DNA of 52,901 nucleotides from Candidatus Fimivivens sp. (GCA_035560715.1 DATMYW010000030.1:1-52901), one strand, 5' to 3'; counted from the stretch's first letter, positions 23,551 through 44,383 are shown. The notes: generated from the letters alone by a model not told the origin. Numbers and translations: made by a program.

Positions 23551-26007
23551 CTACACTTGCCACTTGTCGCGTTCGACCTGATCCGACAAGGGGTCGTCAT
23601 ACTCGGGCGCGTCGGACTGCCCGGCGAATTTTCCGACGAGCACCGGCCGGCCCTTATTGTTGCCTTCCGGCGGGCCGACGATCCCGTTCTCTTCCAGGAG
23701 GTCGAGCAGTTTCGCGGCGCGACCGTACCCGACCGAGAGCCGGCGCTGCAGAAATGTCGTCGCGGCGCGTCCCGACTCGATAACGAGCTGCTTTGCTTCG
23801 TCATACTTGTCATCCAGGTCGTTCGGATCGTCCGACGACGCCGAAAAATCAACATCTCCTGCGGGTGCCACGAATCCGGGCAGTTTTTCCTGTTCCCCGC
23901 CACCGAAATCGTCGTCAAGATTCTCCTCGCCGAGATCCTTCTTCTGGTCGATGAAAAATTTCACGATGTCCTTCACCTCCCGATCATCGACGTAGACACC
24001 CTGGATACGCTTCGGCTGAGACGATTCCGGCGGAGCATAGAGCATATCCCCTTTGCCAATGAGCTTCTCGGCACCGCCCGTATCAAGGATGATGCGAGAG
24101 TCCATCTGATTCGAGACCGCGAACGCGATCTTGCCAGGAATATTCGACTTGATAAGACCCGTCACCACGTCCGAAACCGGCTTCTGCGTCGCGAGAACGA
24201 GATGGATACCGGCCGCACGCGACATCTGCGCAAGCCGGACGATCGCACCCTCGACCTCCTTGCCATGCGACATCATGAGGTCGGCCATCTCGTCGATGAC
24301 GATCACGATATACGGCAACGGCTCCAACGGAACCGTCCGCGGCCGTCCGTCCGGACCGTTCTTATCGACATACGTCTCGCCGCGACGTTCTTTCTCGCGG
24401 TACGATCGGAGATCGCGGACCCGCACGGCCTCGAAGAGCCGGAGCCTGCGTTCCATCTCGCCGATCGCGTACTTGAGGGCGTTCACGACATGCTTGGAAT
24501 CGGTGATGACCCTGCCGCCCTTGAGGTGCGGGATGCCGTTGTAAAGCGACAGTTCGACGCGCTTCGGGTCGACCAGGATGAGCTGCAGATCCTCAGGCGA
24601 GTTCTGATAGAGAAACGAGAGGAGGACCGAATTGATGCAGACGCTTTTCCCCGACCCGGTGCGACCCGCGATGAGGAGGTGCGGCATCGATTCAAGGTCC
24701 GCCACTTCGTAATCACCCGAGACCGATTCACCGAGCACGAAGGAGAGGTTCGATTTACGTTTCGCGAAAGACTCGCTCTCGAGGATGTCGCGCATGCGGA
24801 CACTCGCCTGCTTCGTGTTCGGCACCTCGATGCCGACGAGCGACTTGTTCGGAATCGGTGCTTCGATACGGATCGGGTGCTTCGCGAGCGCGAGCGCGAG
24901 GTCATTCGATAGTCCGACGATCTTGGACAGCTTGGTCCCGAACGCCGGGCTGAACGTGTACTGCGTGACGGTGGGTCCGACCGTCGTGTCACCCATCTCG
25001 CCCGAGATATTGAAGTATTTGAGCGTACTCTGGATGACCTGCCGGGTCTGATCCAGGTCCCCCGAATCGGCACTGCCGCTCTTCCCGCGGAAGAAATCCG
25101 CGTCCGGCCGCTGCCAGACCGACGGATGGCGTTTCTTCCGCCGCTTCGGAGCGTCTTCTTCCTCATCGTCTTCGTCTTCGTTTTCGTCTTCTTCTTCCGT
25201 CGTATCAAACAGCGCCTCCTGGACTGACCGCTCATGCGCGGCTTTCGCGGCGCCGTCCTCCTCAGGAAAACTGATGGTGCCGATATTCCTGCGGGCGTCC
25301 TCGATTTCCGGAGCCGGTACGGACATGGTCGCTCCGAGCGAAGATATCGCGAGCGGCACGGTTTCGACAGGTTCCGAAACGGCTTCCTCCGATTCCTCCC
25401 CGCTCCCGGAGCGCAGCGACAGGATCTTCCCCTTCAGATACGACAGAAAATGAATGAGTGAGACATTGAATGCGGCGATGGTGCCCGAAAGGAAAAGCGC
25501 GATCAGGATAACCGTCCCCGCCGGCCGTCCGGCATACGTGAACAGGAGCGCCGCCAGACCGTACCCTACGTACCCTCCACCCGATCCGCGTTTCGCGGCC
25601 GCGAGCATCTCCTTGCCCGAATCACCGAGATACAGGTGAAACAATCCCAATAGCGAGACGAAGATGACGCCGAGTCCGATGAACTTCACCACGTCCGACA
25701 GGGTCGTCGACCGTCGGCGCAGCAGAAAAAAGGCCGAGATGAGAAGGACCGCCGGAAACAGCCACTTGCCCCATCCGAACAACGCGCCGACAACGGAATC
25801 GGACAGCGACCCGATCGACCCGCCGACGCCGAAAAACGCGAACGTAAACAAAATCGCGCACGCGACCAGGAGGATCGCCACGATGCTGCGTTTCGCGTCA
25901 CCGCCGAGCGCATCGCCCCATCCGGATTCCACTTCCTCTTCCGGCTCCTCGTCATGCTTCCGTCTCCGACCGTGCGCCGGCTTCTCCTCCTGCTTTTTCC
26001 GTCCCAT
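23551..26007 (-). CDS. ftsK: DNA translocase FtsK
   Basis: N-terminal TM helices, acidic linker, Walker A GRTGSGKSV, C-terminal gamma-like wHTH (RRLSVGYGRAAKLLD). Confidence 0.95.
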   Translation of the reverse strand: MGRKKQEEKPAHGRRRKHDEEPEEEVESGWGDALGGDAKRSIVAILLVACAILFTFAFFGVGGSIGSLSDSVVGALFGWGKWLFPAVLLISAFFLLRRRSTTLSDVVKFIGLGVIFVSLLGLFHLYLGDSGKEMLAAAKRGSGGGYVGYGLAALLFTYAGRPAGTVILIALFLSGTIAAFNVSLIHFLSYLKGKILSLRSGSGEESEEAVSEPVETVPLAISSLGATMSVPAPEIEDARRNIGTISFPEEDGAAKAAHERSVQEALFDTTEEEDENEDEDDEEEDAPKRRKKRHPSVWQRPDADFFRGKSGSADSGDLDQTRQVIQSTLKYFNISGEMGDTTVGPTVTQYTFSPAFGTKLSKIVGLSNDLALALAKHPIRIEAPIPNKSLVGIEVPNTKQASVRMRDILESESFAKRKSNLSFVLGESVSGDYEVADLESMPHLLIAGRTGSGKSVCINSVLLSFLYQNSPEDLQLILVDPKRVELSLYNGIPHLKGGRVITDSKHVVNALKYAIGEMERRLRLFEAVRVRDLRSYREKERRGETYVDKNGPDGRPRTVPLEPLPYIVIVIDEMADLMMSHGKEVEGAIVRLAQMSRAAGIHLVLATQKPVSDVVTGLIKSNIPGKIAFAVSNQMDSRIILDTGGAEKLIGKGDMLYAPPESSQPKRIQGVYVDDREVKDIVKFFIDQKKDLGEENLDDDFGGGEQEKLPGFVAPAGDVDFSASSDDPNDLDDKYDEAKQLVIESGRAATTFLQRRLSVGYGRAAKLLDLLEENGIVGPPEGNNKGRPVLVGKFAGQSDAPEYDDPLSDQVERDKWQV

Positions 26008-28965: not shown

Positions 28966-29041
28966 CGTGATACTCGTCATCAAATAAAAACGACCGTCCA
29001 CGGGAATGTGAACGGTCTGTCTTGTCGGTGTCGTTGACGCC

Positions 29042-29537: not shown

Positions 29538-29596
29538 AAAAATATGGCTTCTGTCTGTGATACATGTGCCATAGGACCAATCACCTGGGACGATCG

Positions 29597-30908: not shown

Positions 30909-30941
30909 CAAGACCGCGATTCAATCCGCGCGCAAACGAAC

Positions 30942-30975
30942 GAAGCCGCCCGAACCGGACGGCTTCTTCTTTTTG
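30942..30975. terminator. bidirectional terminator between 30570..30908 and the LysE gene
   Basis: GAAGCCG-N11-CGGCTTC followed by TTCTTTTT. Confidence 0.7.
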
Positions 30976-30992
30976 TCCGCGGCGGGAACCGT

Positions 30993-31604: not shown

Positions 31605-31613
31605 ATCCGTTTC

Positions 31614-32713: not shown

Positions 32714-32725
32714 AAAAATACCAGA

Positions 32726-33127
32726 CTAACTCACTTTCACAATAATAGGAATCTCCTCGATTTTCTCACCATTAATCTCTATATCTACAGCATAATTTCC
32801 TGAGACTTCGAATTTCGTATCGTTGAGTTGCAATATCATCCCTAGATCTACGCTTCCAGTAGGACTTTTCTCGACACCAGCAATAACAGGAGGCAAATCA
32901 AGAATAACCCCGCCGGTGTCCTTATTCACTAAACTTATCTTCTGGGTATACTGCTTCTCGCTTGGAACGCTTATATTTGTCACAACAAACATCTGTCGAT
33001 GTACTGGGACTTCATCTCCAGACTTCTGTAAATTTATATTTTTGAAAACTCCGATTACATTTAACTTCCCCGCATCACCTGTAAATGCATAGTCGCAAAC
33101 CAAGGCGATATTAACTTTGTACTCCAT
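32726..33127 (-). CDS. AT-rich gene for a small beta-rich hypothetical protein
   Basis: 133-aa ORF, 10 nt after the protease stop and 12 nt before the next gene. Confidence 0.7.
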   Translation of the reverse strand: MEYKVNIALVCDYAFTGDAGKLNVIGVFKNINLQKSGDEVPVHRQMFVVTNISVPSEKQYTQKISLVNKDTGGVILDLPPVIAGVEKSPTGSVDLGMILQLNDTKFEVSGNYAVDIEINGEKIEEIPIIVKVS

Positions 33128-33137
33128 AATATTTTTC

Positions 33138-34163
33138 TTACTTCCACCCCTGATTGACGATACGGAACGAGACCTGCTCCTGCTGGACGTTCACGATCCC
33201 CTGCGGGGTCTGCTGCGGGACGACCTGCTGGGTCTTCTTGAACTCCATACGGATCTCGAACCGGTTCGATTTTTCCGCGCTTTCAATTGCTGCGATCACA
33301 TAGTCTTTCTTGTTCTCAGCGCGGAACTCGCCACACTCGGCCTCGGGACTCCACTGCCCGTGGAGAACCATCTCGTCGCGATACGACTCGTAGAGCGAGG
33401 TGAGGAGCGTCGCGAGTTCTCCCTCGGCATACGAGACTGTCTTTATGCCAAGGTCTTCCTTGGCCTCGCGCCGACCGATGACATACTGGTGAGAGTAGAG
33501 TTTCTCGGTCAGGGTATCGATGATGCCGTCGATCGCCTTCTCGTCGAGCTTGGTCTGATGGCTGCCGAGGAGTCGCTTGGCGAGCAGTCGGATAAGCTTA
33601 TACGTGCGGTTCACATTGCCGAGTGCGAGTGGATGCACCGACGGCGTGCTATCGGCAAGCTTGTTGAAGATCTTGGTCAGTTCCTCGTCGCCCTTGATGC
33701 CGACACCTTCTTTCGCAAGGTCGAAGTACGCCATCACCTCCTCGACCGAAATCGGGATCCTGGCCTGCGGGTTCTGCGGATCGGCCGGATTGAAGACGTT
33801 CGCCGTCGAAGGGTCGATCGGGGTCAGCTCGCCCATGTCCGTCATCACGATCTCATCGGCGCCGAGCGCGATCATCGTCGCGGCGCTGTGCGCCTTGTAC
33901 GGCACGAGGACCGAAAAGGTATCGCAGTATTCGCGGATCATGGAGACGAGTCGCCATGGCACCATCGTGTCCCCACCCGCGCTGAACAGGACGAGATCGA
34001 TCTTCGGCACCTTGCCGATCGTGCGGAGCTGCTCACTCATCAGAGGAATCACGTCCATCGCGATCTTGGCACTCACCGGGCCCTGCCGGTCACTCGTCAC
34101 ATACGTAATCACCTTCGACCCTCGGGCCGATTCGATTTTTTTGAAAAGTTCGCTGCGTTCCAT
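33138..34163 (-). CDS. SDH-family Clp-fold serine protease
   Basis: VITYVTSDRQG, LVLFSAGGD, VPYKAHSAATMIALGADEIVM. Start moved to ATG 34163 because the ORF extension to 34319 runs through repeat A1. Confidence 0.75.
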   Translation of the reverse strand: MERSELFKKIESARGSKVITYVTSDRQGPVSAKIAMDVIPLMSEQLRTIGKVPKIDLVLFSAGGDTMVPWRLVSMIREYCDTFSVLVPYKAHSAATMIALGADEIVMTDMGELTPIDPSTANVFNPADPQNPQARIPISVEEVMAYFDLAKEGVGIKGDEELTKIFNKLADSTPSVHPLALGNVNRTYKLIRLLAKRLLGSHQTKLDEKAIDGIIDTLTEKLYSHQYVIGRREAKEDLGIKTVSYAEGELATLLTSLYESYRDEMVLHGQWSPEAECGEFRAENKKDYVIAAIESAEKSNRFEIRMEFKKTQQVVPQQTPQGIVNVQQEQVSFRIVNQGWK

Positions 34164-34194
34164 ATTTTTGGTTCGAATGTATTTCAACACCGTC

Positions 34195-34223
34195 ATCATA
34201 CACCCGAAAAACCCTTTTGTAAA
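34195..34223 (-). promoter_or_regulatory. promoter of the protease operon
   Basis: Minus strand TTTACA, 17 nt, TATGAT. Confidence 0.55.
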
Positions 34224-34268
34224 GCCTTCAAGCATCGCTACATGTCGATTACCTCCCCCACGAAACAC

Positions 34269-34431
34269 TTTGCAGGAGCAGGGTAGTCCCTGCTCCGAAA
34301 CGGTTTTCTCCCTTGCCAAGCCGCAGCCTTGGCGAAGGCTGGTTTGCCAAACCGGATATGTAACATCGATCGTAAACCATGTGGTTCAGGGTGCCCTCCA
34401 CGGGCGGGCAGGCAATCCTGAACCTGCGAGA
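34269..34431 (+). repeat. MITE-like hairpin element, copy A1 (163 nt)
   Basis: 5' hairpin GGAGCAGGG-TAGT-CCCTGCTCC, central GCCAAGCC...GGCTGG hairpin, 3' hairpin GGTTCAGG-N26-CCTGAACC, ends CTGCGAG. Confidence 0.85.
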
Positions 34432-34474
34432 AAACTACGAGAAGTATCCCTCATCCAAGCCTTTCCCCTGACGA

Positions 34475-34503
34475 TTGACTTATTTTCAAAAAAATGTTAT
34501 TTT
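34475..34503 (+). promoter_or_regulatory. cassette 1 promoter
   Basis: Box CTCATCCAAGCCTTTCC at 34450, then TTGACT, 17 nt, TATTTT. Confidence 0.5.
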
Positions 34504-34567
34504 TTCCAGTCGGTCAGCAGATCATTTCCAACAAACAAACGAGGCAAAACGCCGAAGGATCACCAAC

Positions 34568-35182
34568 ATGAACATCTATGAAATACTCGGATTAAAACTC
34601 CCTGTTCGGAATCGTTTCTCGTATATAAAGATGAGCGGGCCAATGAAGGTACTCGCCAGATACGAGACATCCAACGCATACGGCTTCGTAGTCCAAGAAG
34701 GCGTCCAAAGAAACATCATCGACATCCGGATTCCGAAAGATCTCGTGAAAGAACCAGTGGGAACGATCGACATGATCACGGTTACCTGGGAAAAGGATCA
34801 CGCCTTCATAGCGCCGCTTCAAAATTCCGACGCAAGGGAAGCTGATTATGGCAAACCGTTCTACCTTGATGGACCCCTTCAGGGTATGGCCGTACGATGC
34901 TTCACGATGCGAAACGATCACAGCGCCCCGCATGTGGCAGTTCCGATAGGCCAGCCACTTCCTCTCCTGTCCGCTTTCGAAGACGCCGGAGATCGACTCG
35001 TACTGATCAAAATGGATGACAACGGGCACGCGATCAAGAAAATGTCTCCGCTGACGGAATACAGCACAACCCCATGGGAAGAAATTCTCCTGAATCCATC
35101 GGGGTTTCGACTCCAGGTAGACGAAAGGTACGATACCGAAAACAAGGCCTTCCGTTTTTCCGAAAAACTTTCCAAAGAATGA
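34568..35182 (+). CDS. hypothetical protein (cassette 1)
   Basis: In-frame ATG 34568 (MNIYEILG...) with GAAGGA 9 nt upstream. The ORF-track start 34475 is the TTG of the -35 box. Confidence 0.65.
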   Translation: MNIYEILGLKLPVRNRFSYIKMSGPMKVLARYETSNAYGFVVQEGVQRNIIDIRIPKDLVKEPVGTIDMITVTWEKDHAFIAPLQNSDAREADYGKPFYLDGPLQGMAVRCFTMRNDHSAPHVAVPIGQPLPLLSAFEDAGDRLVLIKMDDNGHAIKKMSPLTEYSTTPWEEILLNPSGFRLQVDERYDTENKAFRFSEKLSKE

Positions 35183-35206
35183 ATCTTCCTCGGACACACG
35201 GTTCAG

Positions 35207-35252
35207 GGACGTTCTCTCGCATGTTAAGGCGAGGAACGTCCTTTATTATTTT
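35207..35252 (+). terminator. cassette 1 terminator
   Basis: GGACGTTCTCTCGC-N8-GCGAGGAACGTCC followed by TTTATTATTTT. Confidence 0.65.
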
Positions 35253-35444
35253 CAGCGAGCAAAAAACCACATGCGCGATATTTCATTGCATGAGATTTCT
35301 CGTGTAATGTGATCCATCCGTCATCGTCCGCATGAATATGCCGCGCACATAATCGTTTGTGCGATTCATTGCGTCATTTCCAAAGAGCGGATACTCGCGA
35401 CAAAACGCGCAAACTCTCACCTCATCCAAGCCCTTTCCGAACCG

Positions 35445-35473
35445 TTGACAGGAAATTAGTTCTTTGCTATAAT
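35445..35473 (+). promoter_or_regulatory. cassette 2 promoter
   Basis: Box CTCATCCAAGCCCTTTCCGA at 35421, then TTGACA, 17 nt (GGAAATTAGTTCTTTGC), TATAAT. Confidence 0.7.
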
Positions 35474-35506
35474 ATGTCGTTATCAGTGAGTTGTTTTACA
35501 ATGGTT

Positions 35507-35552
35507 GGTCATAGCCAAAAAAAGTTCATCCGGACTCTTTCTGGCTATGACC
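35507..35552 (+). promoter_or_regulatory. long perfect hairpin in the cassette 2 leader
   Basis: GGTCATAGCCA-N24-TGGCTATGACC, no following T-run, inside the 150-nt leader. Confidence 0.5.
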
Positions 35553-35623
35553 AAGAAAAAAGGTCTTAGTTCCGCCTCGGATGAGAGGAAACACAACCGC
35601 GCGACTGAGCGCAGGAGGCAATT

Positions 35624-36334
35624 ATGTCAGACAATATAAGAGATCCGTTCTATATCTCGAGAGTCTATCCAGGCGAATTAAACGCCCTGGTAAAGCACAT
35701 GATGCAACAGATGGGAACCAATGATCCGAATGAGGCGGTGAAGGGCATCAATAGCGGTGCGTATGCCGTTACAAAGGCACTCCCGTATTCCAAAGCCGAT
35801 GGTGTGCTCGCCATCGAACTCAGGTCGGATGGAACGACTGGGCCCGAGTGGATTCGTAAATGGAGAATGCGCGGCTACAAAGTCCCTGACAGGATACAAG
35901 AGCGTCTGTTGTCGCCTTCGTTCGAACCGACAAATGGCGTTACGTATCGCGTCGTGATTGTCTCCGAATCTGCGATTCTCATAAATCTGGGTACATGGAA
36001 CTCGACCTCGTCGGAGATCGGTTTCTCGGAAATTCTTGAGGAGGCCGGCAGGCGGAATCTCTCGATGATTGAGAACGAGGAAATCCCCTTCCTTCTCATG
36101 GAACGATTCACGAAAGGCCAGTACGAAAAAATGGGGTTTAAAGACATTGTCGTTCCTACACTGATCCCGGGTCCAATACCGACGATAAATGACCAGGAAG
36201 CTCAGTCATACGCGACATATCTGGAAACCTTCTACTACTTCGGTCGATTTTCACGGATCGAGGCGCTCGAATCAGCGATCTTCCAAAGAAATAGTGCTCG
36301 CGGCTATGCGCTCATCGAACGCAGCGAGTCATGA
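35624..36334 (+). CDS. hypothetical protein (cassette 2)
   Basis: 236-aa ORF. AGGAGG lies 6 nt before the ATG. Confidence 0.7.
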   Translation: MSDNIRDPFYISRVYPGELNALVKHMMQQMGTNDPNEAVKGINSGAYAVTKALPYSKADGVLAIELRSDGTTGPEWIRKWRMRGYKVPDRIQERLLSPSFEPTNGVTYRVVIVSESAILINLGTWNSTSSEIGFSEILEEAGRRNLSMIENEEIPFLLMERFTKGQYEKMGFKDIVVPTLIPGPIPTINDQEAQSYATYLETFYYFGRFSRIEALESAIFQRNSARGYALIERSES

Positions 36335-36355
36335 TCAGGATACGATGAGACACAG

Positions 36356-36383
36356 AAAAAGGGATCTCCAACGAGGTCCCTTT
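36356..36383 (+). terminator. cassette 2 terminator
   Basis: AAAAA-GGGATC-N8-GGTCCC-TTT, then stub CTCATTTCTCATCCAAC. Confidence 0.55.
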
Positions 36384-36400
36384 CTCATTTCTCATCCAAC

Positions 36401-36545
36401 TTTTGCAGGAGCAGGGTAGTCCCTGCTCCACACAGTTGTTCTCCCTTGCCAAGCCGTAGCCGTGGCGAAGGCTGGCGTGCCAAGCCGAATTCATAATATC
36501 GATCGTAAACCGCATGGTTCAGGGTGCAACCCTGAACCTGCGAGA
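36401..36545 (+). repeat. MITE-like hairpin element, copy A2 (145 nt)
   Basis: Same three-hairpin layout. 3' hairpin GGTTCAGGGT-GCA-ACCCTGAACC. Confidence 0.85.
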
Positions 36546-36560
36546 GGATACTCCCGCTCG

Positions 36561-36589
36561 TTGACACCCCCCTCCGGACCTGGTACGCT
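36561..36589 (+). promoter_or_regulatory. cassette 3 promoter (P2 type)
   Basis: TTGACA, 17 nt, TACGCT. A TACAAT at 36605 is an alternative -10. Confidence 0.45.
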
Positions 36590-36654
36590 GCCGAGAAGTG
36601 CTTTTTACAATCCGCATCAATCACCCGAAACCCTCTTAACGCGAAGGAGGCACC

Positions 36655-37095
36655 ATGCCACAAAACCTCATGAAAATTCAGATGTACGTTCCTGAAGGGT
36701 TCTCGACGATCAAGTCCGCACTCGATCGGTCGTTCGAGAAAGCCGGGTATCGGCTCGAAATGTGTACCGCCGAGGCGAAACCGCCATCGACCGATCCAAT
36801 AACGCTCGCGGTTCGGATGATCCCCGACGATTTCGGAGCGATTGCCGCCGGCCTCGCAATCATCGTTTCAGAAGAACCGGGCGGGCGGACGAAACTGGAC
36901 TGTGGGCTCGCGATACGAAAATACGACGATAATACGCATCGGGTGAATGCCCAGTTCGGTAATTTCTCTGTTGCCACCACATCGGACGAAATCGCTGGCC
37001 ATCGCATCTATGGCGGGGCATACGTCACGAAACTTGAGAAGGATCTGGACGCACTCATCCAGCAAATCCTGCCGCGGCGCCCCGTTCGCGCGTAA
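36655..37095 (+). CDS. hypothetical protein (cassette 3)
   Basis: 146-aa ORF. AAGGAGG lies 5 nt before the ATG. Confidence 0.7.
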   Translation: MPQNLMKIQMYVPEGFSTIKSALDRSFEKAGYRLEMCTAEAKPPSTDPITLAVRMIPDDFGAIAAGLAIIVSEEPGGRTKLDCGLAIRKYDDNTHRVNAQFGNFSVATTSDEIAGHRIYGGAYVTKLEKDLDALIQQILPRRPVRA

Positions 37096-37119
37096 CGACT
37101 GAAAAAAATACCCGATTAC

Positions 37120-37152
37120 CCGGCATGCGGCCCAACGCATGTCGGTTTTTTT
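37120..37152 (+). terminator. cassette 3 terminator
   Basis: CCGGCATGCG-N6-CGCATGTCGG followed by TTTTTTT. Confidence 0.8.
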
Positions 37153-37173
37153 GCCAAAAATCGATTCCCTTCG

Positions 37174-37202
37174 TTGACGCCCCCTTCCGGACCTGGTACG
37201 CT
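37174..37202 (+). promoter_or_regulatory. cassette 4 promoter (P2 type)
   Basis: TTGACG, 17 nt, TACGCT. Near-duplicate of 36561..36589 and its leader. Confidence 0.45.
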
Positions 37203-37268
37203 GCCAAGAAGTACTTTTTACAATCCGCATCAATCACCCGAAACCTTTTCAAAACAAAGGAGCGTAAC

Positions 37269-38156
37269 ATGACCACGACCAAACCGACACCGATCCTCAT
37301 TTCCGGCCTGCCGGGAAAAATGGCTACCCTGGTAGCGCAGGCGCTCATCCGCGACAACCGCTACCTGGTCGTTCCACACGCACTCGTCGGTCTGGAAACC
37401 ACCGACCCCGAAATCTTTCTCGAGCTCCACGACAAGCTGGGGCCGATGACGCGAATACCGTTCGAAACCGTGTATGCGCCTGGCAGACCAAATTACCTCC
37501 AGGAGCTGAAGTCGCGATACCCGGGACTCATCATCGTGGACTATTCCGTCCCGTCGGCCGTGAATACGAACGCCGAGCTGTTCTGTGACGCCGGTATCCC
37601 CTTCGTCATGGGCACGACCGGCGGCGACCGCAAGGCTCTCCAACGCACCGTCGAGCGATCGGGGGTTCCGGCCGTCATCTCCCCGAACATGTCGCCGGCG
37701 ATCGTCCTCTTGCTCTCGATGTTCGAGTATGCCGCCATGACCTTCCCCGATGCGCTCAAGGACTTCTCGCTCGAGATCATCGAGAGCCACCAGGCTGGAA
37801 AGAAGGACAAGAGCGGAACCGCAAAAAAGATTGGGGAACTCTTCGGACAGCTCGGAGTCGACTATCGCGGCGAGGATTCGATCAACGCGATCAGAAACCG
37901 CATGGCACAGCTCGCCATGTGCATCCCGCCCGAATATCTCGACGGCCACGGCTGGCACACCTACCGTCTGATATCGCCGGATGGCAGCGTTATGCTCGAA
38001 TTCAGGCACAACGTCAACGGACGGCAGACCTATGTCGACGGGACGGTCCTCGCCCTCGTATTTCTCATGGAAAAGGTCCGGGAAGCCTGCCTCGGAGTGT
38101 TCACGAACGAACCGACTGATACCTACTTCACGATGATCGACGTCCTGAAAGGATGA
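37269..38156 (+). CDS. dapB: 4-hydroxy-tetrahydrodipicolinate reductase homologue (plant/long type), cassette 4
   Basis: In-frame ATG 37269 with AAGGAG upstream. N-terminal Rossmann ILISGLPGKMA, MGTTGG, catalytic-loop-like ESHQAGKKDKSGTA. Confidence 0.7.
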   Translation: MTTTKPTPILISGLPGKMATLVAQALIRDNRYLVVPHALVGLETTDPEIFLELHDKLGPMTRIPFETVYAPGRPNYLQELKSRYPGLIIVDYSVPSAVNTNAELFCDAGIPFVMGTTGGDRKALQRTVERSGVPAVISPNMSPAIVLLLSMFEYAAMTFPDALKDFSLEIIESHQAGKKDKSGTAKKIGELFGQLGVDYRGEDSINAIRNRMAQLAMCIPPEYLDGHGWHTYRLISPDGSVMLEFRHNVNGRQTYVDGTVLALVFLMEKVREACLGVFTNEPTDTYFTMIDVLKG

Positions 38157-38183
38157 CAACGCGAACCGAAACGACAACGAACG

Positions 38184-38214
38184 AAAGGGATTCCACCGAA
38201 ACGGAATCCCTTTT
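38184..38214 (+). terminator. cassette 4 terminator
   Basis: AAAGGGATTCC-N8-GGAATCCCTTTT. Confidence 0.8.
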
Positions 38215-38230
38215 CTATTTTTCCTCCAAC

Positions 38231-38419
38231 TTTTGCAGGAGCAGGGTTGTACCCTGCTCCGAAACGGTCGGTCTCCCTTGCCAAGCCGGAGCCTCGGCGA
38301 AGGCTGGCTTGCCAAGCCGCAGTCATGGCAAAGGCTGGCTTGCCAAGCCGAATATATGAAGTCGCTCGTAAACCGCGTGGTTCAGGGTGTAACCCTGAAC
38401 CTGCGAGAAACCTGCGAGA
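38231..38419 (+). repeat. MITE-like hairpin element, copy A3 (189 nt)
   Basis: Same layout. Internal 31-nt unit CTTGCCAAGCC..GGCTGG duplicated in tandem (38277..38307, 38308..38338). 11-nt AACCTGCGAGA duplicated at the 3' end. Confidence 0.85.
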
Positions 38420-38450
38420 ATTATCCCAAATCCAAGCCATTTCCGGACAG

Positions 38451-38479
38451 TTGACTGGAAAGCGATTCTTTGCTATAAT
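38451..38479 (+). promoter_or_regulatory. cassette 5 promoter (P1 type)
   Basis: TTGACT, 17 nt (GGAAAGCGATTCTTTGC), TATAAT. Confidence 0.75.
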
Positions 38480-38542
38480 ACACCGTTATAGTAGTCTTTA
38501 CACCACAAACCACCAACCAGGGCCCGGAAAACGGGGAAATCG

Positions 38543-38878
38543 ATGAAACAGATTGAAAGCCTCAAGGAATTCAAAGGGGGGAATTATTATTGTGTCATTA
38601 CTTTCGGTTGGACAGGCAGCGCCGAAGATCAGCAAACTTTCTTCGTCAGAACGGTAAAACAAACAGGGGGTCTCAGCATAACATACGATTCCGGAAAGAA
38701 GGCGGAACTTTCCCCGACGAACCTGAAAGAAGGTCTCGAATCCGGCGCCTATTACTCCTCCAGCAAGAGCGCCTTTCTTAAAGAGGTGAGATCCTTCCTC
38801 TCCAACATGAAAAGGACTCGAAAAAAGCGATCTCGAACAATACATGACTTCGAACAGTTTATTGCGACTCTTCCGTAA
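38543..38878 (+). CDS. hypothetical protein (cassette 5)
   Basis: 111-aa ORF behind the conserved leader. No signal peptide. Confidence 0.6.
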   Translation: MKQIESLKEFKGGNYYCVITFGWTGSAEDQQTFFVRTVKQTGGLSITYDSGKKAELSPTNLKEGLESGAYYSSSKSAFLKEVRSFLSNMKRTRKKRSRTIHDFEQFIATLP

Positions 38879-38916
38879 CAAGAGGAGGCTTAAAAAAGAC
38901 GGCCTTGATCGTATGC

Positions 38917-38946
38917 AAAGGAGCTCCATCCAACCGGAGCTCCTTT
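38917..38946. terminator. cassette 5 terminator
   Basis: AAAGGAGCTCC-N8-GGAGCTCCTTT. Confidence 0.8.
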
Positions 38947-38947
38947 C

Positions 38948-39007
38948 TCATTTCTCCTTCAACCCGAGCTTGTCGATTCTCGATCGGATACTGCCCGGCT
39001 GGCGCCC
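38948..39007 (-). pseudogene. fossil copy H3 of the helicase 3' end
   Basis: Minus-strand read GRQPGSIRSRIDKLGLKEK-stop versus helicase GRQPGSIRSRIEKLGLGEK-stop. Six synonymous and two non-synonymous codon differences. Confidence 0.8.
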
Positions 39008-39039
39008 GATCATCCCTCATCCAAGCCCTTTCCGGACGG

Positions 39040-39068
39040 TTGACTGGAAAGCGATTCTTTGCTATAAT
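39040..39068 (+). promoter_or_regulatory. cassette 6 promoter (P1 type)
   Basis: Box CTCATCCAAGCCCTTTCCGGA at 39016, then TTGACT, 17 nt (GGAAAGCGATTCTTTGC), TATAAT. Confidence 0.75.
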
Positions 39069-39130
39069 GCACCGTTATAGTAGTTTTTACACCACAAACC
39101 ACCAACCAGGGCCCGGCAACGGGTTTACTC

Positions 39131-39724
39131 ATGAATACACGATCCACGTTTCGCGGTTTTCTTATCGGATTCTTTCTTGTTTTTTTGGCCGCGTGCAGCC
39201 AGAAATCAAGCGAAAATCCAAGGGACATCGAGGAGCGGCTTAGGCAGGCTCCGCCGAAAACCTTCCTGATCGACGAAAAAGGGAATGTGACCAAAGTCGG
39301 CCACGTTGCCGCAGAAACGGACGAAATCACGTCCGTTAACACCGATGGGGCATTCGGCACTATGCCAATCCGGACGGCTACGGGAAGGATCGTCGAGATC
39401 GTCGTGCCCGATCACCAGAACTACGCCGCCTACGAGCGCATGTTCCCTGGCTTGCAATCACAGGACATCCTGAGAAAGGCAGGGCAAGGGGCGATCGCTC
39501 TCATGGCTGACGGTTCCGTCATGGTCATCGTCAATCCGACGTATGAGTATGGCATCGCGATGGTCTCGAAATCAATCGGAACGAGACAGACGCTCTCAAC
39601 CGATGACATCGTAGCTAAAGCGGTCAACATCGTCTCTCCGAAAACTCCAGGAAAGGCGCTCAACGGCTATGATGAGCTGTGTGCGACCTACGTCAGCGGT
39701 ACAAGATTGCGACCTCAGAAGTAA
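39131..39724 (+). CDS. lipoprotein L1 (cassette 6)
   Basis: Signal peptide MNTRSTFRGFLIGFFLVFLAAC with lipobox L-A-A-C (Cys22). Confidence 0.8.
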   Translation: MNTRSTFRGFLIGFFLVFLAACSQKSSENPRDIEERLRQAPPKTFLIDEKGNVTKVGHVAAETDEITSVNTDGAFGTMPIRTATGRIVEIVVPDHQNYAAYERMFPGLQSQDILRKAGQGAIALMADGSVMVIVNPTYEYGIAMVSKSIGTRQTLSTDDIVAKAVNIVSPKTPGKALNGYDELCATYVSGTRLRPQK

Positions 39725-39743
39725 CGAGGCCTCAACCAAAGAA

Positions 39744-39769
39744 AAAGGAGCTTCCAACGGAGCTCCTTT
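39744..39769. terminator. cassette 6 terminator
   Basis: AAAGGAGCT-N8-AGCTCCTTT. Confidence 0.75.
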
Positions 39770-39770
39770 C

Positions 39771-39827
39771 TCATTTCTCCCCCAACCCGAGCTTTTCAAT
39801 TCTCGAACGGATACTGCCCGGTTGGCG
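39771..39827 (-). pseudogene. fossil copy H2 of the helicase 3' end
   Basis: Minus-strand read RQPGSIRSRIEKLGLGEK-stop is identical to the helicase C-terminus, although 8 nucleotides differ. All eight changes are synonymous. Confidence 0.85.
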
Positions 39828-39874
39828 GACGAAAGACGGACGGACCTGATCCGACTGAACCCTTTCCGAAAGTC

Positions 39875-39903
39875 TTGACATACGGCACGAAATATACTAT
39901 CGT
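39875..39903 (+). promoter_or_regulatory. cassette 7 promoter
   Basis: TTGACA, 17 nt, TATCGT, preceded by the partial box CCCTTTCCGAA. Confidence 0.5.
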
Positions 39904-39961
39904 ATCGTGAAGCATCTTACCATCATTTTTCCCTAACCTCTGACCGAAACCGGAGACTCTC

Positions 39962-41056
39962 ATGAAACAAGCGGGACCAACCCAACCAGAAAGCGCCATC
40001 ACCGAACTCCAAAAACTGTTTGACGAAGCGTTTATCGCGTTTGAGAACCAGCCCATTACACCGGGAATAGCCAACCTCGGAGGTGCGGAAATCCCGACAC
40101 ATGTCGGAGGTATCGAAATACGGACGATTCAGCCGGGTGAAGACGGATACACGCTGGGAAATACGTATCTGACCCAGATCTGTAACCAGTTCCGGGAATG
40201 GAGTGCTGACGTACGTGAGGAATACCGGAGGCGGGGCGTGGCGCACGTCGCGATACTCCCGCTCTATATCATGCACGAATTCTTCCGGGCCACCGGAAAG
40301 ATCTCCCTACGTCCGACTGAGCGCGATATGATCATGCTCTCGAGACACTGGAAAAAACCGCTTCAGGAATCAGTGTATGATGCCATTGACACGACAGCGC
40401 ATATCATGGGCCTGGCATGTTCCATCGGATTGGCAGCGGGAGCCGGTTACTTGCTGTTCTGGCCCGGAGGACTGAAGGGAAACGTCGACTATTTCAACGC
40501 CCTTTTCCTGAACACGACCAAGGTGATCCTGACGATTGCCGTTGCCATCGGAATGATGTGGGCAACGAATCTGTTCCTCGGTTACATCGGAAAGAAGGCC
40601 GCGGTCAAACGATTCGTAGAACGGGTTTTCCGCTGGAGATTGGGACGTTTCATCCGAACGGAAAGTCGCTACGAAGTGTTTCGCACCGTTCTGGACAACA
40701 GTCGCTACTGCGACGAATCGGACGCCTATTACGAAACCATCGCGTTTCGTGATTATCCGGACGGATTGGAACGGACCCTGTTCGCCGCCGGACGGTCATA
40801 TGTCGCCGCGCATCCGGATGCCATCGGTATCGCAGGGACGTCATATGAACTGTCCATGATTGGATGGAAACAGCGTCGGCCGGAATTCGCGGAACCGACG
40901 GTATCGGGTCCATGCGTTCTCTTCTACCACGAGCGGGAACACGCGACTGACAAACGGCATTGCCCATATGGAATCGTACTCGGCACGATCGGTGAACTCT
41001 CAAAAGAAGATGCCGATATCTTCCGCGGGCTCTTGAACAATGAGCGTCTTGTCTGA
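39962..41056 (+). CDS. hypothetical two-TM membrane protein (cassette 7)
   Basis: 364-aa ORF. GGAG lies 6 nt before the ATG. Central hydrophobic helices IMGLACSIGLAAGAGYLLFW and VILTIAVAIGMMWATNLFLGYI. Confidence 0.7.
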   Translation: MKQAGPTQPESAITELQKLFDEAFIAFENQPITPGIANLGGAEIPTHVGGIEIRTIQPGEDGYTLGNTYLTQICNQFREWSADVREEYRRRGVAHVAILPLYIMHEFFRATGKISLRPTERDMIMLSRHWKKPLQESVYDAIDTTAHIMGLACSIGLAAGAGYLLFWPGGLKGNVDYFNALFLNTTKVILTIAVAIGMMWATNLFLGYIGKKAAVKRFVERVFRWRLGRFIRTESRYEVFRTVLDNSRYCDESDAYYETIAFRDYPDGLERTLFAAGRSYVAAHPDAIGIAGTSYELSMIGWKQRRPEFAEPTVSGPCVLFYHEREHATDKRHCPYGIVLGTIGELSKEDADIFRGLLNNERLV

Positions 41057-41069
41057 ACGAGACCGAACA

Positions 41070-41105
41070 AAAACCCGACGCGTGCAGCCGCGCCCGTCGG
41101 GTTTT
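41070..41105 (+). terminator. cassette 7 terminator
   Basis: AAAACCCGACG-N14-CGTCGGGTTTT. Confidence 0.85.
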
Positions 41106-41135
41106 ATTCTCCTCATCCAAGCCATTTCCGGACGG

Positions 41136-41164
41136 TTGACTGGAAAGCGTTTCTTTGCTATAAG
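41136..41164 (+). promoter_or_regulatory. cassette 8 promoter (P1 type)
   Basis: Box CTCATCCAAGCCATTTCCGGA at 41112, then TTGACT, 17 nt (GGAAAGCGTTTCTTTGC), TATAAG. Confidence 0.7.
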
Positions 41165-41224
41165 ACATCTTTATCAGTGCCTTACCATTTCAACTCAAAC
41201 AAGGTCCCGGCAACGGGTTTACTC

Positions 41225-41806
41225 ATGAATACACGATCCACGTTTCGCGGTTTTCTTATCGGCATCGCGCTCATTTTCCTCGCCGCATGCGGCCAGAAAA
41301 CCGAAACGAATCCGCCGGAGGTCGCGAGGCAAAAGGCCGAGGAGATCCGAAGCGCGACTCCGACGACCTTCGTAAGAAGTTTCGCGGATCACATCGTAAG
41401 GATCACGAACATCGACAAGGACACGTTCACCGCGATCGAGCCCGACGGCACGTTCCGAACTTACGCGATTTCGGCGGCAGCAAAAACGGTCGACGAGATC
41501 ATAAAGCCGGACGACCCGAACTACGCCGACTACGTGCATATGTTCCAAAACGAATCCGTCATCGCGGCGATACACAACGCGGGTCAGTACGCCTTCATCG
41601 TTGCCAAGGATGGGACGATCGGTCAAATAGTCAATAACCCCGCCCCCGCCGCACTCACCGCCAACGTCCGCTGGCATCAGGGAGCAATGATTGTAAAAAT
41701 GGAGATTTCCTCGATCGCCACACGACTTATCGACGTCGTTCCGACAAGTGACATTAGGTACAACACCTTTGCCGGAAAGTACTGCCGCGAAGAAAAGGCG
41801 AAGTGA
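41225..41806 (+). CDS. lipoprotein L2 (cassette 8)
   Basis: In-frame ATG 41225. MNTRSTFRGFLIGIALIFLAAC lipobox (Cys22). The first 38 nt of the CDS are identical to L1. Confidence 0.8.
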   Translation: MNTRSTFRGFLIGIALIFLAACGQKTETNPPEVARQKAEEIRSATPTTFVRSFADHIVRITNIDKDTFTAIEPDGTFRTYAISAAAKTVDEIIKPDDPNYADYVHMFQNESVIAAIHNAGQYAFIVAKDGTIGQIVNNPAPAALTANVRWHQGAMIVKMEISSIATRLIDVVPTSDIRYNTFAGKYCREEKAK

Positions 41807-41824
41807 TTGTCGGCGCGCAACAAA

Positions 41825-41850
41825 AAAGGAGCTTCCAACGGAGCTCCTTT
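41825..41850. terminator. cassette 8 terminator
   Basis: AAAGGAGCT-N8-AGCTCCTTT. Confidence 0.75.
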
Positions 41851-41911
41851 CTCATTTCTCCCCCAACCCGAGCTTCTCGATCCGCGAACGGATGCTGCCA
41901 GGCTGACGGCC
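41839..41911. repeat. 73-bp perfect direct repeat, left copy (contains pseudo 3' end H1, 41852..41911)
   Basis: Identical base for base to 42730..42802 (offset 891). Covers half the terminator plus the stop and last 19 codons of the helicase. Confidence 0.9.
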
Positions 41912-41990
41912 AAAGGGAAATATCGTCCCTCCTCCAAGCCATTTTCAAACCATTTCACAAGGAAATGATAATGTCCCCATTTTCGAACCA

Positions 41991-42019
41991 TTGACGAGGT
42001 AGCTATTTCCTGCTATAAT
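41991..42019 (+). promoter_or_regulatory. cassette 9 promoter
   Basis: TTGACG, 17 nt, TATAAT. Confidence 0.7.
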
Positions 42020-42078
42020 AGACCGTCGCAGTAGTCTTACCAATAACTCTCAACCAGGGCCTGGAAACGGGTTTTATC

Positions 42079-42693
42079 ATGCACACATATTCCACGCTTC
42101 GCCACATCCTCGTCGGATTCTTTCTCGTTTTCCTCGCCGCATGCACGGAGATGACCAATCCGCAGGATGTCGCAACGGAATTCCAGAATAAACTAAAGGA
42201 GGCCCCGATCGGATCCTATGTGATCACCAATTACGGAACATGCCTAAGAATAGAGTCGCGATCTTCCGACCGTGATAGCCTGTATGTCTTTACCGGACGC
42301 GGCTCGATGAGTAAACTCGGGATCACTGCTCTTTCCTACGAGTCCAAAAAACTACTCCTCCCAGGGGAAGAAGGGTATGCGGCTCAGGACAGGAGTTTCC
42401 GCGATATTACTCAAGAATCCCGGATATTAAATGCGCCAAAAGGCACCCTCCTTCTCCGGAAGAATATCTCCAACGGAAGAACGGAAGTCGGTATGATAAT
42501 GGCATCCACCGGCTGCCCCGGTGTCGTGAATGTCTGTTGGAAAAATGGCTCGCAGGCAGAATCTGAACAAGTATTCACGCTTACCAAAACGATCACCTCT
42601 ATCATCACTCCCTCCGAACAGGACTATAAAACGTACATGCTCTTGTTCAATAATGGGAAAGTCTTCCATCCGGAAGGATTCAGAAAAGGCTGA
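42079..42693 (+). CDS. lipoprotein L3 (cassette 9)
   Basis: MHTYSTLRHILVGFFLVFLAAC lipobox (Cys22), behind the conserved leader. Confidence 0.8.
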   Translation: MHTYSTLRHILVGFFLVFLAACTEMTNPQDVATEFQNKLKEAPIGSYVITNYGTCLRIESRSSDRDSLYVFTGRGSMSKLGITALSYESKKLLLPGEEGYAAQDRSFRDITQESRILNAPKGTLLLRKNISNGRTEVGMIMASTGCPGVVNVCWKNGSQAESEQVFTLTKTITSIITPSEQDYKTYMLLFNNGKVFHPEGFRKG

Positions 42694-42713
42694 AATCGAC
42701 GAGGTATGAAAAT

Positions 42714-42741
42714 AGGAGCTCCATCCAATCGGAGCTCCTTT
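42714..42741. terminator. bidirectional terminator shared by L3 and the helicase
   Basis: AGGAGCTCC-N8-GGAGCTCCT followed by TT. Confidence 0.75.
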
Positions 42742-42802
42742 CTCATTTCTCCCCCAACCCGAGCTTCTCGATCCGCGAACGGATGCTGCCAGGCTGACGG
42801 CC
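42730..42802. repeat. 73-bp perfect direct repeat, right copy (functional helicase 3' end)
   Basis: See 41839..41911. Confidence 0.9.
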
Positions 42803-44383
42803 GAGGGTGTGCGAGATCGATTTGATATCGGCCCCTCCCTGGACAAGCCTTCGGAGCCACTTGTCCTCGTCTTCCTTCCACGGCGTATACGCCTTCGGGA
42901 ATGTCTTCCGTATCTCGTCATAATGACCGGGGCCGGCGGTTTTGGGAGTCGGACTCCCGCTTGGGAGTCGGACTCCCTTTTTCACTTCTTTTCTCCCCTT
43001 CGTCTTCTGCTTACCCATTTTTCCCTTTCCCCCTTGCCACGTAGGAGCCTTGGCGGAGGAGGGCTGCACCCCGCAGATGATCAAAAACCCTTCCTCATCT
43101 TTCCGGATCTCGTCTTCGCTCCGTGAGCCGTACGATGTCGCGGCCGACTCGCTCGCCTCGCGAAAGAGGAGGTCGCGCTCGCGCACCGCCGGGTGCGTGA
43201 GGAACGCGCGGTCGGAGAGTCCGACGAGCGAAAGCCCCGCGAGGGTGCGCACGCGGGAGAGCGCCACATATCCCTGCCCGTATTCGAACACGCGAGACAG
43301 GTCCATGACCGCCGCATCGAGCGAGGTTCCCTGACTCTTGTGGATCGTCATCGCCCACGCGAGCCGCAACGGGATCTGCCGGATCCGCGCCACGATCTCC
43401 TCCCCTTCCTCGACCGCCCATTCGGCAGGAGCGACCGTCACCGTGTCACCGTCGCGGGTGCGGACAATCGGGAATTTCTTGGTCGCATCGAACCCGATGA
43501 CCGTGCCGAGCGTCCCGTTCACGTATCCTTCCTCGGCATTGTTCTTGGTGAACATGACCGAGGCGCCCTCCTTGAGTTCGAGCTTCTCGGGCGAAAGGCA
43601 CCCGCGGATGAGCGAGGCGAGCGGTCCCTCGGGTCCCCGCGTCGCCATACGGAAGACGACTGCCTTCCCGGGAAGCCGGTCGAGCGCGGCCGCATTGATC
43701 CCGTCCACGTCGGTATTGTGCGAGAAAAGCACCGGCAGGTCCTCGTCCGGCACATCATCGGGTCCCAGGAGGCACTTGCGAACGAGTTCGAGGTGCGTCT
43801 CGCCGAATTCGTCACGGCGGATCGCGGAGAGTATCTCGAGGAATGCCGGGTCTTCCTGACGGTGCTGCTCATGCAGATAGCAGACGACCGGATCGAGCGC
43901 GGCCCACGCGGACGACTCGAACGCGAACTGGGCCGCCCCATCGCGCGACACCGGCGGCAGCTGGAAGAAGTCGCCGACGAGCACGACCTGGATCCCGCCA
44001 AAGGGAAGCGTCGTTCCCTTGGCGTGCCGGCACACCCGCTCCACAAGCGAAAGTGTCCGCGCATCGAGCATCGAGATCTCGTCGATTACGAGGACGTTCG
44101 TCTCGCGAATCCGACGCAGGGCCGCACGGTTCTTCACGAGACGGCGGAATCCCTCGTCGTCGAGCTCGCGGTTCGCACCGATCCCGCTCCACGAGTGGAT
44201 GGTCATCCCGTGGATATGCGTGGCCGCGATTCCGGTCGAGGCCGTCACCGCGTACGCGATACCCCGGGAACGAAGGTATTCCGCATATCGGTTCACGACA
44301 TGCGTCTTGCCGGCACCCGCCTCCCCCGTGAGGAAAACGTTCGCGCCGGTCTTGAGTATGGATAGCGCCTGGTCCTGGGTCAT
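42743..44383 (-). CDS. PIF1/RecD-like ATP-dependent DNA helicase with a C-terminal Myb/HTH-like tail
   Basis: Walker A GEAGAGKTH, VLVIDEISM, VLVGDFFQLPPV, TIHKSQG. Tail YTPWKEDEDKWL...LGRQPGSIRSRIEKLGL. Confidence 0.88.
   Translation of the reverse strand: MTQDQALSILKTGANVFLTGEAGAGKTHVVNRYAEYLRSRGIAYAVTASTGIAATHIHGMTIHSWSGIGANRELDDEGFRRLVKNRAALRRIRETNVLVIDEISMLDARTLSLVERVCRHAKGTTLPFGGIQVVLVGDFFQLPPVSRDGAAQFAFESSAWAALDPVVCYLHEQHRQEDPAFLEILSAIRRDEFGETHLELVRKCLLGPDDVPDEDLPVLFSHNTDVDGINAAALDRLPGKAVVFRMATRGPEGPLASLIRGCLSPEKLELKEGASVMFTKNNAEEGYVNGTLGTVIGFDATKKFPIVRTRDGDTVTVAPAEWAVEEGEEIVARIRQIPLRLAWAMTIHKSQGTSLDAAVMDLSRVFEYGQGYVALSRVRTLAGLSLVGLSDRAFLTHPAVRERDLLFREASESAATSYGSRSEDEIRKDEEGFLIICGVQPSSAKAPTWQGGKGKMGKQKTKGRKEVKKGVRLPSGSPTPKTAGPGHYDEIRKTFPKAYTPWKEDEDKWLRRLVQGGADIKSISHTLGRQPGSIRSRIEKLGLGEK
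42942..42977. repeat. tandem 17-mers, each holding a 15-nt palindrome, inside the helicase CDS
   Basis: TTGGGAGTCGGACTCCC at 42942..42958 and 42961..42977. Core GGGAGTCGGACT also forms the half-site of the 32-nt intergenic palindromes. Confidence 0.85.

Follow-up and report, generated by a model that had tools for sequence, protein, structure and literature searches.

In mycoplasmas, the clustered lipoprotein genes of vpma and vsp loci have a highly conserved 5′ untranslated region (UTR) and signal peptide followed by divergent mature parts (PMC2268961). At loci of this type one promoter is moved by Xer1/Mbr/HvsR-type recombinases at sites in the 5′ UTR, or promoter tracts undergo slippage; the mature regions are built of repeats, the genes lie in both orientations, and a recombinase of the Xer type is adjacent (PMC2268961). 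The Erp lipoproteins of Borrelia burgdorferi, which are OspE/F-related and associated with the 'upstream homology box' (UHB), are paralogues sharing promoter/operator DNA, the leader peptide and the first mature residues (PMC10016077). The rest of each erp open reading frame (ORF) is very diverse and recombining, the genes are co-expressed and not switched, and they occupy allelic sites on cp32 prophage plasmids, their bodies being said to have many independent origins (PMC10016077). The present work concerns three neighbouring genes, L1, L2 and L3, of an uncultured, ultra-small bacterium, on a 52,901-nt stretch of DNA (DATMYW010000030.1:1-52901 of GCA_035560715.1, filed under Candidatus Fimivivens sp.), the whole of which is called the window here. 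An earlier note on this stretch had likened them to the variable surface lipoproteins of mycoplasmas. By analogy of layout, the L genes resemble Borrelia Erp/UHB more closely than mycoplasma Vlp/Vpma, and they are probably old paralogues with homogenised 5′ modules and fast-diverging bodies among which no switch operates.

L1 and L2 have a block of 57 nt in common, 39112-39168 and 41206-41262, in which every base is the same, and the next base differs at either border; in this point the earlier note was exact, and the borders are abrupt. Outside the block the two genes have 48% DNA identity in a protein-guided codon alignment, and their remaining signal-peptide codons are 63% identical. Even at 63% identity the chance of a run of 57 matches is 0.63^57 = 3.5e-12, so that chance is excluded as the source of the block. 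For residues shared by L1 and L2, the same codon is used in 12/12 cases inside the block and in 29/58 outside. The signal peptides of L1 (MNTRSTFRGFLIGFFLVFLAAC), L2 (MNTRSTFRGFLIGIALIFLAAC) and L3 (MHTYSTLRHILVGFFLVFLAAC) are each 22 residues long and consist of a positively charged n-region, a hydrophobic h-region and F-L-A-A-C at residues 18-22, in which L-A-A-C (residues 19-22) satisfies the lipobox pattern [LVI][ASTVI][GAS]C; a helix is predicted at residues 9-17 in the L1 model. Both the reading frames and the L-A-A-C signal peptides proposed earlier for L1-L3 were thus confirmed. Among family members having an N-terminus, Cys stands in the lipobox column in 11/13.

The history of the signal peptides differs from that of the mature domains, since identities cluster by genome in the former and by orthologue in the latter. 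L1 and its orthologue P0005 are 55% identical in the mature part and 59% in the signal peptide, L2 and its orthologue P0004 54% and 36%, and L3 and its orthologue at the related locus L002 56% and 33%. Within the window, the same identity matrix gives 28% (mature) and 86% (signal) for L1/L2, 18% and 73% for L1/L3, and 18% and 59% for L2/L3. Because each paralogue has its own orthologue at 52-56% elsewhere, the three copies are old and predate the split from the relatives. Gene conversion over short tracts is indicated by the grouping of the signal peptides by genome together with the 12/12 identical codons of the block. Further upstream L1 is a mosaic: its promoter and leader are 93% identical to those of g111 (38420-38522), a neighbouring ORF, up to the hairpin, and are identical to those of L2 from there. 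Further family members and mosaics, for which a search had been proposed, were both found. Two loci from different samples, L001 and L013, are about 97-100% identical over some 150 nt 5′ of the promoter and agree in every base of a tract, at least 40 nt long, over the lipobox region; their bodies are at about 62%. Between L001 and L011, the flank formed by the SDH-protease gene is about 92% identical up to some 150 nt 5′ of the gene, after which different family types follow. In these alignments the recombination borders lie in the 5′ module.

The mature parts, called only faintly similar in the earlier note, proved to be homologous. With signal peptides removed, L1 and L2 are 33% identical over 116 amino acids (E 5e-17), and L1/L3 and L2/L3 are 19% identical each (E 6e-8 and 2e-8); on these alignments L1-L3 are a real paralogous family. 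The N-terminal half of the family also aligns with the C-terminal half (hhalign probability 96.6%, E 5e-10), and one strand/helix pattern occurs twice in the AlphaFold model of L1, of which the mean predicted local distance difference test (pLDDT) score is 81.5 and about 90 across residues 31-170. Each L protein is accordingly modelled as two copies of a ~75-residue beta-rich (SH3/Tudor-like) domain. Structure prediction, as advised at the outset, therefore gave a repeated two-domain pattern and no match to a known fold. No family was found for L1-L3 and their neighbours in Pfam, NCBIfam and PDB-sequence searches, the sole library matches of L1-L3 being weak ones to the lipobox region of LptM models. 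An exact look-up of the L1 protein returned no record, and the family profile, run over all six frames of the window, detected no additional or degenerate copies. The L family is new as a protein family and lies outside any known one.

A word-seeded search of 5.8e9 proteins gave five matches, the window's three and two relatives, and an exhaustive hidden Markov model search of 1.84e9 cluster representatives gave 11, with eight more relatives, three of them half-length. There are about ten relatives in all public data, and all come from Moraniibacteriota-like bacteria belonging to the candidate phyla radiation (CPR). The orthologue of L3 is on JAAXXG010000004.1, a metagenome-assembled genome (MAG), at 7921..7313 in L002 and is 55-56% identical. 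Identity between the window and its relatives is 96% for RecA (L012), 90-94% for the SDH protease, 77% for FtsK, 67-77% for the helicase, 63-71% for dapB and 25-56% for the best L-family match. By this measure the L bodies are shown to diverge unusually fast relative to neighbouring genes (25-56% against 63-96%). The picture of a conserved 5′ end on hypervariable bodies therefore stands as far as the homogenised 5′ end and the fast divergence between relatives are concerned, and does not hold within the genome, where the bodies are not hypervariable (orthologues at 52-56%).

The 57-nt block is the sharpest portion of a larger repeated module made of promoter, leader, terminator and trailing repeat. 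A promoter scan placed −35/−10 sites at 38451, 39040, 41136 and 41991, and the order of the module is an inverted repeat over the −35, the promoter, a CA-rich leader, CCAGGG, the hairpin, 7 nt and ATG. The predicted promoters of L1 and L3 match the consensus at 11/12 positions with TG (extended −10, sigma-70 type); that every copy has its own promoter, as claimed before, agrees with the scan. The −10 hexamer of L2 (41159-41164) is TATAAG and that of g111, L1 and L3 TATAAT, and L2 may be transcribed more weakly owing to this base. The inverted repeat (C)TTTCCGGAC-GTTGACTGGAAA(G) over the −35 of g111, L1 and L2 (38440-38461, 39028-39051, 41125-41146) is partly kept in relatives and may act as the operator of a regulator common to these genes.

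The leaders of the L genes are ~55 nt long and have no AGGAGG-type Shine-Dalgarno sequence; the neighbouring genes at 36655 and 37269 have one. Their hairpin has 4-5 bp, and 7-8 nt separate it from ATG. The stretch from the −10 to ATG, the length of which is nearly constant across relatives, is 58-86% identical over 68 nt in ten genes from seven assemblies, and the mature proteins of leader-sharing genes are 10-56% identical. In the other loci examined (6-15 kb each), the leader motif occurs solely before the family gene. L012, the most distant member, has a hairpin of other sequence, CCGGG-TTA-CCCGG, in the same place, and the hairpin of L3 has a C-to-U change retaining a G-U pair. On these comparisons the leader is shown to be under selection, conserved in every family member found, above the coding body. 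A structured riboswitch-like element or RNA family is not claimed: Rfam over 34.1-42.8 kb gave no match at the gathering threshold or at E<=1, and because of this and of folding at the level of shuffled sequences the leader is described as conserved with a small hairpin. When JGI metagenome contigs were scanned with the leader pattern, seven matches came up, all of them due to chance, in high-GC coding DNA lacking the promoter context. The hairpin may place the upstream AGGG close enough to ATG to work, which is a guess from the layout. A hairpin shortening the distance to ATG is known from phage T4 gene 38.

The module also precedes g111, which found only itself in the 5.8e9 proteins. That g111 might be a diverged member of the L family was rejected (hhalign probability 0.9% against the family). 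Either a new gene was captured here in an L cassette, or the stretch is a non-coding spacer. A second promoter/leader module (36558-36649 and 37171-37262), with 89% identity between its copies and an AAGGAG Shine-Dalgarno sequence, precedes two unrelated genes, a 146-residue ORF at 36655 and dapB at 37269.

On the 3′ side of g111, L1, L2 and L3, a hairpin terminator (GGAGCTCC) is followed by ~65 nt of helicase-end sequence, and these terminators with trailing repeats are placed at 38914, 39737, 41818 and 42709. On the opposite strand the ~65 nt encode ...GRQPGSIRSRIEKLGLGEK and a stop, the C-terminus of a convergent Pif1-like helicase. This end is real after L3 and a remnant copy after g111, L1 and L2. 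Remnants were also found elsewhere, after P0007 in L010 and twice in L002, where the copies carry L002's own amino-acid variant SIRARMRKLGL. In this, and in the identity of the L2 copy to the true end, the remnants resemble the homogenised 5′ ends. Between the L1 copy and the true helicase end there are eight synonymous changes and one non-synonymous change, whereas 25% synonymous is expected at random; P is about 1e-4 for this expectation and about 0.003 for an in-situ model of a 'frozen remnant' (both are estimates). The synonymous excess means that the differences were shaped in working helicase genes. The pattern fits repeated conversion from a functional copy or import with diverged DNA.

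Judged by its genes, the window is a chromosomal segment of a Moraniibacteriota-like CPR bacterium, and a mollicute is ruled out. A search of GTDB with the leader motif gave a single match, which identifies the nearest genome as a MAG of Candidatus Moraniibacteriota (Patescibacteria/Parcubacteria group). Chromosomal markers in the window are FtsZ, ComEC, RecA and ORFs of rpoB/rpoC size, and its FtsK homologue is 77% identical to the Pfam-annotated FtsK of L010/L012. The L-gene region lies on the chromosome between FtsK/RecA and rpoC/rpoB. In relatives the family gene is usually present in a single copy and convergent with the Pif1-like helicase, which adjoins it in L012, L010, L013 and L002. 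The order is FtsK, the family gene P0008 and the helicase in L012, the last two convergent; SDH protease, P0007, dapB and Pif1 in L010; P0006 and then the helicase end in L013; and the start of the SDH protease followed by an L2-type or L1-type gene in L001 and L011. In the window the two anchors, FtsK (23551..26007, minus strand) and the helicase (42743..44383, minus strand), are 16.7 kb apart. Comparison of these orders makes a single family gene beside the helicase look ancestral and the window look like an expanded state.

The 16.7-kb interval of the window (26008-42742) corresponds in L012, with RecA 96% identical, to about 1 kb with one gene; most ORFs of the window's interval are without a Pfam family, and GC goes down to 49-54% around 32-42 kb. 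In L013 (101-4835) the SDH-protease side is swapped for DUF2130, an AAA_15/AAA_21 ATPase, a methyltransferase and a Bro-N gene, an arrangement that looks like a defence-type island adjoining the family gene.

That the 57-nt identity arose without conversion, from very strong purifying selection on an initiation or regulatory RNA element reaching into the first codons, is improbable. The leader up to ATG is indeed conserved in all relatives, including L012, at a fixed distance from the −10, and the spacer TTTACTC is exact in L1, L2 and L002. However, the coding nucleotides of the block are unlike the starts of the orthologues (L001 ATGCGTACACGATTCAAC, L011 ATGTCATCAAGC, L002 ATGCGCAAATTC); since its 38 coding nt are not conserved in them, selection on the leader is by itself insufficient for the block. 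The grouping of signal peptides by genome and the drop in synonymous identity at abrupt borders also speak for conversion. Phase or antigenic variation of the mycoplasma type, with one or few copies on at a time through promoter inversion, slippage or 5′-site recombination, is very improbable, even if its layout, in which divergent bodies follow a conserved 5′ UTR and signal peptide (PMC2268961), agrees with the homogenised 5′ ends of the L genes and with bodies that differ strongly between close relatives. Tandem Repeats Finder detected no arrays in the promoter spacers and, in the L coding parts, nothing beyond a 16-nt trace (42472-42487); the promoter spacers are free of homopolymer and short-repeat tracts, no promoter or gene is bracketed by inverted repeats, and the ORFs scanned across the 53-kb window contain neither a recombinase nor an integrase domain. 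Moreover, g111 and L1-L3 stand in a single orientation, each with a predicted promoter and terminator, and one arrangement alone was seen in the contigs of the two source runs. There is no sign of a phase-variation switch, nor is the locus evidence of a new switching mechanism; with no repeats, invertible segments or recombinase and with a CPR host, the mycoplasma analogy of the earlier note is not supported as far as switching is concerned. The likeness to Vpma (M. agalactiae), Vsp (M. bovis), Vsa and Vlp lies in the conserved 5′ UTR and signal peptide and the divergent bodies, whereas the L genes have their own promoters, no switch, no tandem-repeat bodies and no mixed orientation, and their products are globular two-domain proteins (by the model) with no Pfam/NCBIfam relation and with relatives in Patescibacteria.

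The trailing repeats suggest another origin, in which mobile cassettes, each bringing along one copy of the helicase 3′ end, integrated at a defined site in this end through site-specific recombination or a single crossover of excised circles and piled up in tandem. A helicase-end copy closes every unit (g111, L1 and L2, P0007 in L010, two in L002), all copies share an inner border near LGRQPGS, and one L002 unit adjoins a Bro-N gene. The differences between copies are nearly all synonymous in the helicase frame, as from working genes of diverged lineages, and the first cassette differs between near-identical flanks (L001 and L011). No integrase, however, was found in the window or in the relatives' loci examined, the mutual homology of L1-L3 is what tandem duplication predicts, and a fixed border is equally expected from one old duplication later homogenised by conversion; this origin is given a low probability. 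A broader proposal, held tentatively and as rather unlikely, is that the interval on the Pif1 side in these CPR bacteria is a recombination-driven cassette locus in which the promoter/leader/signal modules upstream and the modules of terminator and helicase end downstream would be portable homology arms for single-gene units. If so, units would be duplicated, converted, swapped between strains and piled up, most of them encoding fast-evolving surface proteins and ORFans, and the locus would generate population-level diversity of an episymbiont cell surface without a dedicated recombinase. Finally, repeats of 57-120 nt could have led to false joining of segments from co-occurring strains. The source is a metagenome assembly, and its runs X1 and X2 are freshwater sediment metagenomes available as contigs (k=31 unitigs), which break at repeats and mask rare variants; in both runs the breaks coincide exactly with the repeated modules. 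In X1, a contig of low depth (7.7x against 21-33x) has pieces of the module joined to a different gene start and shows a related strain in the sample. High-depth contigs of a biofilm metagenome, X3, have the same modules before other gene starts as well, so that the module occurs in relatives with other cargo; within the window, g111 with its L-type flanks is the example of this. On the other hand, the segments of L, g111 and g364 (a gene between L1 and L2) were all recovered in both runs with zero differences from the window and at similar depth within each run (21-33x in X1, 4-12x in X2), arrays with the same flanks occur in the independent assemblies L010 and L002, and the block occurs in two left and two right contexts regardless of order. 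Such an artefact is most improbable.

Several points weigh against old paralogues with homogenised 5′ modules as the full account. The lipobox Cys is replaced by Tyr in the L3 orthologue of L002 (7313-7921, minus strand), and P0009 (L011 550-1161) has a plain hydrophobic membrane anchor with no lipobox Cys; membrane anchoring, not lipidation, may be the conserved trait of the family. Lgt and LspA genes were not identified among the scanned ORFs of the 53-kb window, and it is from the lipobox that L1-L3 are judged to be probably lipidated. The g111 and L1 helicase-end copies differ from the present end by 8-10 changes, from which it follows that conversion is not uniform; import from diverged relatives would account for them equally. 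L010 disrupts the closing pair of the leader hairpin, and the leader folds no more stably than shuffles (z 0.06 to 1.06). A Foldseek search of the L1 model against PDB gave nothing significant (best E 0.012, template modelling score 0.26), its weak matches being scattered among tandem Tudor/SH3/Sm-like folds and barrels. The promoters, transcription starts and co-expression of the L genes are predictions, and the linkage of flank to body across the 57-mer, as given by the assembly, is provisional. The features are collected in Table 1.

Table 1. Positions of the L genes, their flanking modules and neighbouring features, counted from the first base of the window
Feature	Position	Strand	Description or basis
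57-nt block, copy 1 (L1)	39112..39168	+	leader hairpin, 7 nt, ATG, first 38 coding nt of L1
57-nt block, copy 2 (L2)	41206..41262	+	exact identity to copy 1
L1, 197 aa, signal peptide then two ~75-aa beta-rich domains	39131..39724	+	ORF, family profile E 5e-75
L2, 193 aa	41225..41806	+	ORF, family profile; orthologues P0004 (52-54%), P0006 (41%)
L3, 204 aa, converging on helicase gene	42079..42693	+	ORF, family profile; orthologue in L002
L1 promoter/leader	39012..39130	+	CTTTCCGGAC..TGGAAAG over −35; TTGACT-17-TGCTATAAT; CCAGGG; hairpin CCCGGCAACGGG
L2 promoter/leader	41108..41224	+	−10 = TATAAG
L3 promoter/leader	41985..42078	+	TTGACG-17-TGCTATAAT; hairpin CCTGGAAACGGG
Promoter/leader of L type before g111	38423..38542	+	repeat comparison, promoter scan
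g111, 111-aa ORFan between L-type flanks	38543..38878	+	only itself in 5.8e9 proteins
Terminator and helicase-3′-end remnant after g111	38917..39010	+	antisense reads IGRQPGSIRSRIDKLGLKEK, then stop
Terminator and helicase-3′-end remnant after L1	39744..39833	+	antisense reads VRQPGSIRSRIEKLGLGEK, then stop
Terminator and helicase-3′-end remnant after L2	41825..41911	+	equals true helicase end, last 20 codons
Bidirectional terminator common to L3 and helicase	42714..42739	.	predicted on both strands
g364, 364-aa protein between L1 and L2	39962..41056	+	ORF; no Pfam/NCBIfam match above cut-off
Pif1-like helicase, locus anchor, source of trailing repeats	42743..44383	-	PF05970 E 4.9e-33

Other repeats and insertions were noted around the helicase-end copies. 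In L002 (5254-6200), the true helicase end is separated from a further copy of it by a 282-residue ORF; by eye this ORF is Bro-N/antirepressor-like, a Bro-N gene being annotated in L013, and an insertion into the 3′ end of the helicase gene would leave such an arrangement. A repeat rich in hairpins, about 150-200 nt long, occurs in the window at 34262-34445, 36395-36550 and 38226-38425, with a fragment at 29492-29529. It is intergenic, stands directly after truncated helicase-end remnants, and has three stems within TTGCAGG...CCTGCGA; within its third copy, 31 nt are repeated in tandem (38277-38350). The element has no counterpart in Rfam, its three copies show no covariation, and it could be an insertion resembling a miniature inverted-repeat transposable element or a small RNA. 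Perfect palindromes, GGAAGTCCGACTCCCATGGGAGTCGGACTTCC, stand at 8995-9026 and 9568-9599, 573 nt apart, and a related sequence, GGGAGTCGGACTCCC, at 42963-42977 within the 3′ part of the helicase gene.

That short-tract gene conversion makes tandem paralogues evolve in concert is a general phenomenon in bacteria, and the L array has its marks: an abrupt tract of full identity in otherwise saturated paralogues, and a converted part that groups by genome. It differs in that the converted parts are expression and export signals and a terminator with a neighbour-gene remnant, not the bodies. Integron cassettes are promoterless, end in attC and depend on an adjacent IntI integrase, an attI site also belonging to such arrays; the L array departs from them in each of these defining traits. 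Like them, the L array consists of one-gene units with repeated junctions in one orientation, many of them ORFans; unlike them, it has units that each carry a promoter and a terminator, its junction repeat duplicates the 3′ end of the helicase gene, and the ORF scans of the window yielded no integrase. With Erp/UHB genes the L copies have in common, by analogy only, a conserved predicted promoter and leader for each copy and homogenised 5′ ends. Unlike Erp genes, they are chromosomal and tandem with all bodies homologous, they have no sequence relation to OspE/OspF/Elp, and no counterpart of the BpaB-type regulators was identified.

With regard to mechanism, L1-L3 would be old tandem paralogues of a small lineage-restricted family, encoding exported, probably lipid-anchored envelope proteins. 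The interval from FtsK/SDH protease to the helicase would have expanded largely as one-gene units with repeated flanks, each L gene forming a separate transcription unit with a promoter, leader, signal peptide, intrinsic terminator and helicase-end copy. The array may have arisen by tandem duplication or by unequal crossing-over between the repeated flanks. RecA-type short-tract gene conversion, together with purifying selection on the leader, would then keep the flanks alike; RecA and ComEC in the window are counted in support of conversion and import. With common signals, all L copies would be expressed, exported and co-regulated instead of switched, and their bodies would diversify through surface exposure to a host cell or to phages.

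The usual view of CPR/Patescibacteria is that they live attached to host cells, and to our knowledge almost all of their surface proteins are uncharacterised. The L family provides a defined candidate, consisting of a tiny clade-specific set of probably lipid-anchored two-domain proteins, the bodies of which outpace housekeeping neighbours, as proteins would be expected to do when they face a host or phages. The leader, better conserved than the proteins that it precedes and having no ordinary Shine-Dalgarno sequence, is a candidate expression element in a group where regulation is barely known. The array itself would offer a clear case from nature in which concerted evolution works on the signals for expression and export and on a neighbour-gene remnant, and not on the protein bodies.

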